Assembly: GCF_003334305.1 (NCBI RefSeq)
Contig: NZ_QOWS01000007.1
Strand: one strand, 5' to 3'
From: Escherichia coli
GTDB taxonomy: Bacteria > Pseudomonadota > Gammaproteobacteria > Enterobacterales > Enterobacteriaceae
DNA length: 64,000 nucleotides
Made by a program: the position numbers and the translations under genes. Below are positions 25,229 to 56,210 of this stretch, in pieces (the first letter of the stretch is position 1; each line of letters opens with the position of its first letter). The notes under the pieces are model-generated. The model was not told where the DNA came from. It searched no databases and worked only from the letters and a program-made list of their open reading frames with translations.

Positions 25229-25262
25229 AAAAAGGCGACATGCCAATGTGTCGCCTTTTTCA
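25229..25262 (+). terminator. Rho-independent terminator after acrD
   Basis: Hairpin ggcgacatgccaatgtgtcgcc followed by a T-run (tttttc). Confidence 0.7.
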
Positions 25263-52654: not shown

Positions 52655-53014
52655 ATGACCAAACAGGTAAAAATCTACCATAACCCACGCTGTTCAAAGA
52701 GCCGGGAAACGCTGAACCTGCTGAAAGAAAACGGCGTGGAGCCAGAAGTGGTGCTCTACCTTGAGACACCCGCCGATGCGGCAACGCTGCGCGATTTGCT
52801 GAAAATGCTGGGGATGAATAGCGCCCGTGAATTGATGCGCCAGAAAGAGGATCTTTATAAAGAACTGAACCTGGCTGACAGTTCGCTTAGCGAAGAGGCG
52901 CTGATTCAGGCAATGGTGGATAATCCGAAGCTAATGGAGCGCCCGATTGTGGTCGCGAATGGCAAAGCGCGGATTGGTCGTCCACCGGAGCAGGTACTGG
53001 AAATCGTGGGTTAA
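52655..53014 (+). CDS. yfgD: ArsC-family protein YfgD
   Basis: 119-aa ORF, recognised YfgD. Confidence 0.9.
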   Translation: MTKQVKIYHNPRCSKSRETLNLLKENGVEPEVVLYLETPADAATLRDLLKMLGMNSARELMRQKEDLYKELNLADSSLSEEALIQAMVDNPKLMERPIVVANGKARIGRPPEQVLEIVG

Positions 53015-53044
53015 GATGTGCTCCATCGCTAGTTGAAGCACATT

Positions 53045-53139
53045 GCCGGATGCGACGCTTGCCACGTCTTATCCGGCCTACGAATACTATGGATTAACTT
53101 CGCGTAGTTCGGATAAGGCGTTCGCGCCGCATCCGACAA
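53045..53139. repeat. REP/BIME cluster between yfgD and hda
   Basis: Inverted gccggatgcgacgc...cttatccggcctac and ggataaggcgttcgcgccgcatccg units. Confidence 0.6.
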
Positions 53140-53151
53140 TAAACACCTTAT

Positions 53152-53853: not shown

Positions 53854-53947
53854 AGATACCTCAACCAGGATTTCACAAAATCGCGAGAAGTTTACCACAG
53901 AATCCCATGATGTTTGAACCGGGCAGCAACACTGCCCGGTCGGTACA

Positions 53948-55237
53948 TTATTTGTCTGTTATATCCGCGTCTTCTGCGTCCAGCACCACTTCTTCAGGGC
54001 GCAGCACACTAATCAGTTTGAAGATCAAACTTAAGCCGATACCGACGATGGTCGCCAGCGCCATACCTTTTAACTCCGCCGCGCCGATGTTTACCTTCGC
54101 GCCACTGACGCCGATGATCAAAATCACGGAAGTCAGGATCAGGTTCTGTGCTTTGTTGTAATCCACTTTCGATTCGATCAAAACACGAATACCGGAAGCA
54201 CCGATGACACCATAAAGCAGCAGCGAAACGCCGCCCATCACCGGCAATGGGATCATCTGGATAGCGGCAGCCAGTTTACCGACGCAGGAAAGCAGGATAG
54301 CGAAAATCGCCGCCCCGCCGATAACCCAGGTACTGTAAACACGGGTGATCGCCATCACGCCAATGTTTTCTCCGTAAGTGGTATTTGGCGTGGAGCCAAA
54401 GAAGCCGGAGATCACGGTCGACAGGCCGTTAGCAAACATCGAACGGTGCAGACCTGGATCGCGCAGCAGATCTTTTTTGACGATATTAGCCGTTACTACC
54501 AGGTGCCCTACGTGTTCGGCAATAACCACTAATGCCGCTGGCAGAATAGTCAGAATGGCAAACCACTCGAAGCGCGGCGTATAGAGGGTTGGCAGCGCAA
54601 ACCAGTGAGCATTAATAATCGGCGTGGTATCGACAATTCCCATTGCGAAAGAGAGCGCGTACCCCACCAGCACGCCAATTAAAATCGGGATAATTGCCAG
54701 GAAACCACGGAACAGCACGGAACCTAAAACCGTGACCGCCAGGGTGGTAATAGAGATGATGATGGTTTTGGAGTCTGGCGTTTGCCCTTCAGCCGGGAGT
54801 AAACCCGCCATACCGGCAGCTACGCCCGCCAGCTCCAGACCGATGACGGCAACGATTGCGCCCATTGCCGCAGGTGGAAACAGCACGTCCAGCCAGCCGG
54901 TCCCCGCTTTCTTCACGATAAAAGAAACCAGGCAGAACAGCACGCCGCACATAATAAAGCCGCCCAGCGCGACTTCATACCCCAACGGCAACAGTAACAA
55001 TACCGGTGAAATAAAGGCAAAGCTGGAACCAAGATAAGCCGGAATTTTCCCTTTACAGATGAAGAGATACAGCAGCGTTCCAATACCGTTAAATAACAGT
55101 ACAGTCGCCGGGTTAATATGAAATAAGACGGGCACCAGGACGGTTGCACCAAACATGGCGAACAAATGTTGCAAACTAAGCGGGATTGTCTGTAAAAGTG
55201 GCGGTCTTTCACTCACCCCGATAGCACGGCGCGTCAT
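53948..55237 (-). CDS. uraA: Uracil:proton symporter UraA
   Basis: Track ORF is 443 aa; start chosen at [16 protein letters not shown] (429 aa). Confidence 0.92.
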
Positions 55238-55279
55238 AGTATTATCCTCTGTATTATGTGTTATAGGCGCTTTACTCAA

Positions 55280-55308
55280 AAAAAAGCCGACTCTTAAAGT
55301 CGGCTTTA
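55280..55308 (-). terminator. Intercistronic rho-independent terminator/attenuator between upp and uraA
   Basis: On the minus strand, hairpin aaagccgactttaagagtcggcttt followed by an 8-T run. Confidence 0.6.
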
Positions 55309-55322
55309 ATTATTTTTATTCT

Positions 55323-55949
55323 TTATTTCGTACCAAAGATTTTGTCACCGGCATCGCCGAGGCCCGGAATAATGTATCCGTGCTCGTTCAGTCCCTGGTC
55401 AATCGATGCGGTATACAGTTCGACGTCCGGGTGCGCTTTTTCCAGCGCAGCGATACCTTCTGGCGCAGCTACCAGCACCAGAACTTTGATGCTGCTGCAG
55501 CCCGCTTTTTTCAGCAGGTCGATGGTCGCGATAACGGAACCACCGGTTGCCAGCATTGGGTCAACGATCAGCGCCATACGCTCATCGATGTTAGAAACCA
55601 GTTTCTGGAAGTACGGTACCGGCTCCAGCGTTTCTTCATTACGGTACATACCGACAACGCTGATGCGCGCGCTCGGAACATTTTCCAGTACACCGTCCAT
55701 CATCCCCAGACCGGCACGCAGAATTGGCACAACGGTAATTTTCTTACCTTTGATCTGGTCGATTTCTACCGGGCCGTTCCAGCCTTCGATAGTTACTTTT
55801 TCCGTTTCGAGGTCGGCGGTCGCTTCGTAAGTCAGCAGGCTACCCACTTCGGAAGCGAGTTCGCGAAAGCGCTTGGTGCTGATATCTTGCTCACGCATCA
55901 GTCCCAGCTTGTGTTTGACGAGTGGGTGTTTGACTTCCACGATCTTCAT
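55323..55949 (-). CDS. upp: Uracil phosphoribosyltransferase Upp
   Basis: Track ORF is 217 aa; start chosen at [16 protein letters not shown] (208 aa). Confidence 0.93.
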
Positions 55950-56194
55950 ACTCTTTCTCCTTTGAGGGGCAGCCACAAAAAAAATCGACGGATTATACCT
56001 CCTTTCTTCAAGGCGGCAATATTCTTTTCGTTGACTTTAGTCAAAATGATAACGGTTTGAGATAAAGTTATTTTATATTCAAATGGTTATGAAAGAAGAT
56101 TATTCCATCCGAAAACTAACCTTTGCCCTGGCACAAGTCTTCTTTCGCCGCGCGTCTGGGGAAAAGACGTGCAAAAAGGTTGTGTAAAGCAGTC

Positions 56195-56210
56195 TCGCAA
56201 ACGTTTGCTT
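56195..56210. promoter_or_regulatory. PurR operator (PUR box) of purMN
   Basis: tcgcaaacgtttgctt matches the PUR-box consensus at 14/16, about 65 bp upstream of the purM start. Confidence 0.6.

Follow-up and report, generated by a model that had tools for sequence, protein, structure and literature searches.

Dependence on both UTP and the translating ribosome has been established by experiment for the intercistronic attenuator that precedes pyrE, an element of E. coli and Salmonella. In K-12, the rph-pyrE spacer reads TGA-TTTTT-AAGGCGAC-TGATGA-GTCGCCTT-T8-G; in RNA form, this is UGA-UUUUU-AAGGCGAC-UGAUGA-GUCGCCUU, with U8 in all before the G, and pyrE lies 32 nt on. The gene is cited as attenuation-controlled in the literature (PMC11228462). 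The influence of a ribosome on a nearby terminator has been followed with a series of lambda tR2 reporters (Li et al. 2016, PMC4824070). When the stop codon is only a few nucleotides away, the ribosome represses the terminator almost completely; efficiency climbs with distance (0.12-0.8 at 17-18 nt) and reaches a plateau beyond about 27-30 nt.

The upp-uraA operon and the UTP-dependent reiterative control of its promoter are likewise already known, the upp start GATTTTTTTTG being a site of UTP-dependent reiterative transcription (PMC7039003, PMC12709180). Our literature search found no paper on a terminator or attenuator between the two genes, although mention in older subscription papers is possible. 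Sequence, published transcript ends, and related genomes together make it likely that the upp-uraA operon contains a leaky, operon-internal Rho-independent terminator. Taken alone, this would be an ordinary element of its kind, with a 3′ end already present in a genome-wide table. The added value lies in comparison: across the order, the stem, a U run of exactly eight, and the G after it stay fixed, while neighboring ordinary terminators are replaced.

The upp-uraA spacer and its hairpin

Table 1. Features of the upp-uraA locus (window coordinates; transcription runs from higher to lower numbers)
Feature	Position	Strand	Details and basis
upp-uraA promoter	55977-56019	-	-35 TTGCCG 56019-56014; -10 TATAAT 55997-55992; promoter scan
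Transcription start site (TSS), initially transcribed GATTTTTTTTG	55986 (K-12 2620909)	-	6 nt past TATAAT, G of GATTTTTTTTG; Yan 2018
upp (uracil phosphoribosyltransferase)	55323-55949	-	ORF list and 100% identity to annotated E. coli genomes
upp stop codon UAA	55325-55323	-	
Stop-to-hairpin spacer, 15 nt, A-rich, AGAAUAAAAAUAAUU	55308-55322	-	Sequence
Terminator hairpin AAAGCCGACUU-UAA-GAGUCGGCUUU	55307-55283	-	Sequence, folding
U8 tract	55285-55278	-	Followed by conserved G at 55277
Spacer from U8 to uraA start, 40 nt	55238-55277	-	Mostly poorly conserved
Shine-Dalgarno (SD) AGAGGA of uraA itself	55250-55245	-	Sequence
uraA (uracil:H+ symporter)	53948-55237	-	ORF list and 100% identity; transcribed by read-through of the hairpin
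Distal hairpin after uraA, ACCGGGCAG-UGUU-GCUGCCCGGU, without U tract	53915-53940	-	

The window (the whole 64,000-nucleotide stretch of Escherichia coli DNA that was analyzed) can be related to K-12 around this site by adding 2564923 to the window position, which gives the NC_000913.3 coordinate; the conversion was checked at the uraA start and the upp stop and is valid locally, but fails in other parts of the window. The 85-nt upp-uraA spacer is base-for-base that of K-12 MG1655 and runs on the minus strand as UAA-AGAAUAAAAAUAAUU-AAAGCCGACUU-UAA-GAGUCGGCUUU-UUUUU-GAGUAAAGCGCCUAUAACACAUAAUACAGAGGAUAAUACU-AUG. A 1.5-kb query around the site matched 5426/5426 complete E. coli genomes, many at 100%, with upp, uraA, and purM annotated. 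A 64-nt region is the same in 5343 of 5413 E. coli genomes, and variation at such depth is uninformative.

A preliminary description of this DNA had placed a G+C-rich hairpin followed by U8 on the coding strand between upp and uraA, at 55278-55322. These limits prove exact: 55278 is the last U and 55322 the first base past the upp stop codon. The structure is borne out by sequence, folding energy, and z-score. The hairpin comprises 11 pairs: a 6-bp G+C core (GCCGAC/GUCGGC) that begins 18 nt from the upp stop in E. coli, flanking A-U pairs, and a closing U.G. The part conserved among relatives consists of A-GCCGAC (55305-55299) paired with GUCGGC-U (55291-55285). The minimum free energy (MFE) lies between -14.6 and -15.2 kcal/mol, whereas dinucleotide shuffles reach -3.4 to -4.5 (z about -5); 0/200 shuffles gave an equally good fold. 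The U run is exactly eight long and flush with the stem, its first three residues being able to pair with the upstream AAA.

Such an arrangement is rare in the surrounding DNA. A strict census of both strands of the 64-kb window returned three sites at which a hairpin of -10 kcal/mol or better stands flush against T>=6, and the upp-uraA site is the only T8 among them. The motif CGAC-N4-9-GTCGSC-T6 occurs once in the window, compared with 0 in 100 shuffles. A generic terminator-pattern scan showed no enrichment of the region (8 observed vs 10.2 expected). No alternative antiterminator pairing emerged when the last 75 nt of upp were folded together with the spacer, the hairpin being intact in both MFE and centroid structures, and no leader peptide was found at the upp-uraA spacer.

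A bidirectional terminator was also considered. The plus strand folds too (-14.7 kcal/mol), with a U-rich stretch after the fold in E. coli. This candidate was rejected: other genera do not conserve the upstream A tract, the G.U variants described below fit minus-strand RNA only, and the tables of Yan 2018 hold no plus-strand transcription termination site (TTS) with a coordinate starting 26201 or 26202.

The promoter listed in Table 1 is the only one seen for upp and uraA. Its start-site T8G is the same as the T8G of the terminator about 700 nt downstream. Beyond it, upstream of purM, lies a perfect palindrome, GCAAACGTTTGC (window 56197-56208), a candidate for the PurR operator of purMN, going by the PurR box consensus. 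On the other side of the operon, the interval between yfgD and hda (window 53010-53144) contains REP-like palindromes with sub-threshold Rfam naRNA4 similarity on both strands. An 'orphan' 3′ end appears in Adams 2021 at K-12 2618003 (+), about window 53080, and so does a region of Rho termination, antisense to hda, at 2618272 (+).

Transcript ends and read-through in vivo

SMRT-Cappable-seq as used by Yan 2018 yields full-length reads of 5′-triphosphate transcripts from MG1655. Mapped here onto the window, the rich-medium TTS 2620201 (-) of NC_000913.3 is position 55278, the last U of U8. Supplementary Data 1 of that study tags the site 'novelTTS' without comment and shows it covering only b2498 (upp). 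The TSS at 2620909 accounts for 214 reads in rich medium: 24 stop at the site, another 4 stop within the next 50 nt, and 154 run past it. We take 154 as the pass-through count because at least 139 rich-medium reads (30 + 8 + 101) from this TSS reach the uraA-distal site 2618838. Taken literally, the Rich_TTS sheet would say '4 pass, 154 within 50 nt', which was rejected on these read counts and on the median read-through of 1544.5 nt given for the same entry. Columns 7 and 8 of that sheet ('reads passing through' and 'within 50 bp') appear to be swapped relative to the header and the M9 sheet, and those who reuse the table should beware.

The stop fraction at the site comes to 13-15%, which is a lower bound because the upp-only RNA, at 709 nt, falls below the 1-kb selection applied: the libraries were made from size-selected cDNA of at least 1 kb, and the authors state that shorter terminated RNAs were depleted. 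The preliminary description had spoken of a strong, partial terminator within an operon. Partial it is, since reads both stop at 55278 and continue beyond it, and read-through is thus not uniform; the operon is equally well supported by a single TSS with reads running through both genes. The word strong goes beyond what the measured fraction, itself a minimum, supports.

Three operon variants start from TSS 2620909 in Yan 2018, namely b2498, b2498|b2497, and b2498|b2497|b2496, corresponding to upp, upp-uraA, and upp-uraA-hda. The last of these reflects the behavior of the uraA-distal TTS at 53915 (K-12 2618838), where read-through again predominates. The operon table of the same study contains no uraA-only TSS between 2618805 and 2620909, and upp and uraA therefore constitute one operon with an internal leaky stop. 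This bears directly on the idea of a full stop for upp combined with a separate promoter for uraA, for which a candidate might be sought in the weak sigma-70-like match TTGGTA-16-AATAAT (55309-55336, minus strand) that overlaps the upp stop codon and spacer. The match scores 9/12, lies in A+T-rich sequence, and is probably due to chance; the scan finds no more sites than it does in shuffles. Reads with a 5′-triphosphate at TSS 2620909 extend through uraA in at least 139/214 cases in rich medium and 142/260 in M9, which contradicts a separate promoter, and the literature describes uraA as a member of the upp-uraA operon. We regard such an arrangement as extremely unlikely.

Under the leaky-terminator explanation, polymerase starting from the single upp promoter would either release a 709-nt upp-only mRNA at the last U of U8 or read through to produce upp-uraA and upp-uraA-hda mRNAs, and one promoter could provide more upp than uraA message. 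Because the hairpin lies only 15 nt past the upp stop, a ribosome finishing upp would be expected to disturb its folding, and the fraction of polymerases that stop would depend on how tightly translation trails transcription. The ribosome is probably the cause of leakiness at this terminator. It is also probable that the terminator sets the upp:uraA ratio, as the preliminary description proposed, and that this ratio matters physiologically. Under Pd stress, uraA is down 59-fold and upp is reported merely as 'down', a contrast that we count as uraA being able to change far more than upp in transcriptomes.

A narrower version of this explanation would make the site a UTP-sensitive, translation-coupled intercistronic attenuator of the pyrE type, and we put it forward only tentatively. 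When UTP is high, polymerase would outrun the ribosome on upp, the hairpin would form, and uraA would be off; when UTP is low, a closely following ribosome would block the hairpin and uraA would be transcribed, adding a second layer of pyrimidine control atop the upp promoter. Growth conditions offer some encouragement. The TTS was called in rich medium and not in M9 (Yan 2018), and MG1655 is pyrimidine-limited in minimal medium owing to rph-1 (PMC6892915). Reads ending at the site number 24/214 in rich medium and at most 9/260 in M9 (Fisher p = 0.0016), a contrast drawn from one size-selected dataset and confounded by that selection. AZT co-induces uraA with the attenuator-controlled pyrBI and pyrE (PMC11228462). 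Against this version, reads reaching the uraA end are not higher in M9 (142/260) than in rich medium (139/214), and our literature search found no paper linking uraA to attenuation.

The curated Term-seq 3′-end and Rho tables of Adams 2021 (LB at two densities, M63) have no entry for upp, uraA, or coordinates 26201xx-26202xx, a weak negative because these tables hold approximately the top 1000 ends per condition. One short supplement of Brandenburg 2022 makes no mention of the upp-uraA site.

Conservation across the Enterobacterales

The comparison set comprised one genome per species and provided 80 Enterobacterales loci (Upp 92-100% identical), spanning genera from Escherichia to Yersinia, Serratia, Pantoea, Erwinia, Dickeya, Brenneria, Hafnia, Edwardsiella, and Rahnella. 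The sequence continues far enough past upp in 79 loci, and in each of them uraA is the next gene; the remaining locus (L031) ends too early. A hairpin of essentially one sequence is present in every intergenic region (IGR) compared. Its 22-nt core (A-GCCGAC / GUCGGC-U8-G) is 98.7% identical to E. coli across the 79 other species, compared with about 51% at fourfold-degenerate sites of the same genomes (54% in upp, 50% in uraA). With the window included, GCCGAC...GUCGGC is exact in 72/80 loci and the preceding A is kept in 79/80; the T run is exactly eight in 76/80, and the next base is G in 77/80. By contrast with this core, the loops comprise 26 different sequences, IGR length varies from 56 to 533 nt, and the remaining spacer aligns poorly.

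Where the stem does vary, pairing is retained. All eight stem variants still pair (A-U to G.U, G-C to G.U, and one double change from G-C to A-U), such that pairing holds in 100% of cells among 33 distinct sequences. With the sequence itself so fixed, covariation is almost nil. Only in minus-strand RNA do the G.U variants form pairs, and selection therefore acts on the sense transcript. Judged by these alignments, the stem, the U8, and the following G are under very strong purifying selection, from which we argue that the activity of the element matters.

Conservation of this kind might alternatively reflect a specific partner that reads the palindrome, whether a DNA-binding protein, Hfq or ProQ on the upp 3′ end, or an sRNA derived from the 3′ UTR, with termination secondary. 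The fixed sequence with almost no covariation would suit such a partner, and sRNAs bind Hfq through a module of this kind, a hairpin with a long U tail. Rfam covariance models found nothing at the gathering threshold here; the best overlap is with the enterobacterial sRNA STnc240 (28.1 bits against a threshold of 55, E = 0.33), and the other sub-threshold overlaps include STnc430 and AbsR25, every E value being at least 0.33. The weak sRNA similarity would be in keeping with a partner; the distance of the scores below gathering counts against one. The confinement of tolerated G.U variants to sense RNA argues against a DNA palindrome, the loop exists in 26 versions, and no seed-like sequence is conserved in the noncoding stretch before the hairpin. 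A partner is also unneeded, since stabilizing selection on a minimal 6-7 bp stem suffices, and the same holds for pyrE. A partner of this sort appears very unlikely.

The same data address a possible 3′-end protection or processing barrier, in which read-through would be constant and downstream cleavage followed by exonuclease trimming back to the hairpin would stabilize upp mRNA. Stable hairpins block PNPase and RNase II. That the site is missing among the top Term-seq ends and was not called in M9 would be in keeping with such a barrier, and the uraA-distal 3′ end at 53915, where the hairpin has no U tract, may be an example of the kind. At upp-uraA, however, all eight U residues remain on the 3′ end; trimming should have halted at the stem or within a few nucleotides of it. 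In addition, conservation of the U8 length (76/80) and of the next G equals that of the stem, and a barrier needs neither. We consider this account unlikely, and the upp 3′ end probably arises by termination rather than by trimming.

For the leaky terminator, the distance over which a ribosome could interfere is of particular interest. Stop codon and core are separated by 5-13 nt in 32/80 species, as at pyrE, by 17-19 nt in 40/80, and by more than 90 nt in 8/80, where mobile repeats have been inserted; the hairpin itself starts 4-8 nt past the upp stop in many relatives. The first class speaks for a pyrE-type attenuator. The other two, namely E. coli with 39 further species and the eight with long spacers, count against it.

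Repeats within the upp-uraA IGR were noted in Yersinia (L057, L064, and L067), Brenneria (L070), Phytobacter (L049), Citrobacter (L053), and Pantoea (L062 and L069). The Yersinia insertion, of about 150 nt, lies between the upp stop and the hairpin, and Brenneria carries tandem hairpin-rich repeats of about 90 nt after the hairpin; the hairpin-U8-G core is intact in every repeat-bearing IGR. In species with the 17-19 nt spacer (e.g., L007, L026, L028, and L036 among Enterobacteriaceae, and window 55311-55322), the spacer begins, over some 12 nt past the upp stop, with NCGAATAA, which looks like a tandem duplication of about 10 nt of the upp end (ACGAAATAA). Such a duplication would have lengthened the distance between stop codon and hairpin from about 7 to about 18 nt and added the A tract that extends the stem.

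Ordinary terminators nearby served as controls. Within the Enterobacteriaceae, the hairpin after uraA covaries; another hairpin or none stands in its place in Serratia, Yersinia, Pantoea, Dickeya, Rahnella, Hafnia, and Erwinia. The terminator after pyrE is an unrelated sequence in each of nine genera. In these alignments, ordinary terminators turn over, but the upp-uraA core does not.

Comparison with known regulatory terminators

Set against those two terminators, the pyrE attenuator is the only element found to be conserved in the manner of upp-uraA. Its spacers were retrieved from K-12 and eight further genera through PyrE homologues. Across these nine genera, the pyrE stem (GGCGAC/GUCGCC or AGCGAC/GUCGCU) is conserved in sequence and the loops vary. 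Both elements thus share an unusual mode of conservation, with the stem sequence kept across the Enterobacterales and the loop free. Because this order-wide fixity is shared with a known attenuator, we regard the upp-uraA site as a regulatory set-point and not simply a passive stop.

The likeness extends to architecture. In each case an intrinsic terminator separates a translated ORF from a pyrimidine gene downstream, and in both the order is stop codon, short spacer, hairpin, U8 and G (in E. coli), and, some 30-40 nt later, a downstream gene with its own SD. The stems, GGCGACU/AGUCGCC at rph-pyrE and GCCGACU/AGUCGGC at upp-uraA, differ by one swapped G-C pair. This resemblance was given less weight as evidence of kinship once the ordinary acrD/ypfM terminator was seen to carry GGCGAC/GUCGCC too, a pyrE-like stem; stem likeness alone is therefore not diagnostic. 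That terminator, AAAAAGGCGAC-N-GTCGCCTTTTTT (window about 25233-25262), is bidirectional-looking and lies just after acrD (+), with ypfM on the opposite strand in K-12.

There are also clear differences. A U-rich run of 4-7 nt precedes the hairpin in 8/9 pyrE loci (in Pectobacterium it is degraded to TTCTGAT), and this pause tract is absent from the E. coli upp spacer, which is 15 nt long and A-rich; no U-run is conserved across species at upp-uraA, where the spacer sequence itself is unconserved. The stop-to-hairpin distance is 5-7 nt at pyrE, compared with 15 nt to the base and 18 nt to the core at E. coli upp. A ribosome-coupled, possibly UTP-sensitive uraA attenuator is thus plausible but unproven, plausible because conservation mode, stem, and stop-proximal position resemble those of pyrE. 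That the hairpin is a second UTP-responsive, translation-coupled intercistronic attenuator of the pyrE class, Enterobacterales-wide and previously undescribed, is a possibility to which we give rather less than even weight.

If it were so, uracil uptake (uraA) would be tuned apart from salvage (upp) within one operon, and UTP would be sensed twice via two T8G tracts, once at the reiterative start and once by intercistronic attenuation. This suggests a hypothesis in which a potentially costly transporter, UraA, which is also an entry route for 5-fluorouracil, is balanced against a salvage enzyme. The locus may also provide a natural case in which the distance from stop codon to terminator sets gene ratios, which could be useful for the design of synthetic operons.

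Other described systems place the upp-uraA terminator in a wider setting. With the reporter series of Li et al., it shares a position in the tunable zone, since its hairpin follows the stop codon by 15 nt in E. coli and by 4-8 nt in many relatives; that series is synthetic, whereas a ribosome effect at upp-uraA is something we infer. The pyrBI leader attenuator and the reiterative promoters of upp, codBA, and pyrBI, which sense UTP by means of T tracts, offer a further parallel, in that the T8G of the terminator is identical to that of the start site, although these mechanisms act at initiation or in a leader-peptide region with upstream pause sites. Read-through terminators such as those at prs-dauA and dapA-bamC, charted across the genome by SMRT-Cappable-seq and RNA-seq operon maps, resemble upp-uraA in having one TSS, a 'staircase' of 3′ ends, and an mRNA gene content that depends on conditions. 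Most sites of that type are unexamined for conservation; the upp-uraA terminator differs in being, on the comparison made here, under purifying selection at the level of sequence throughout the order.
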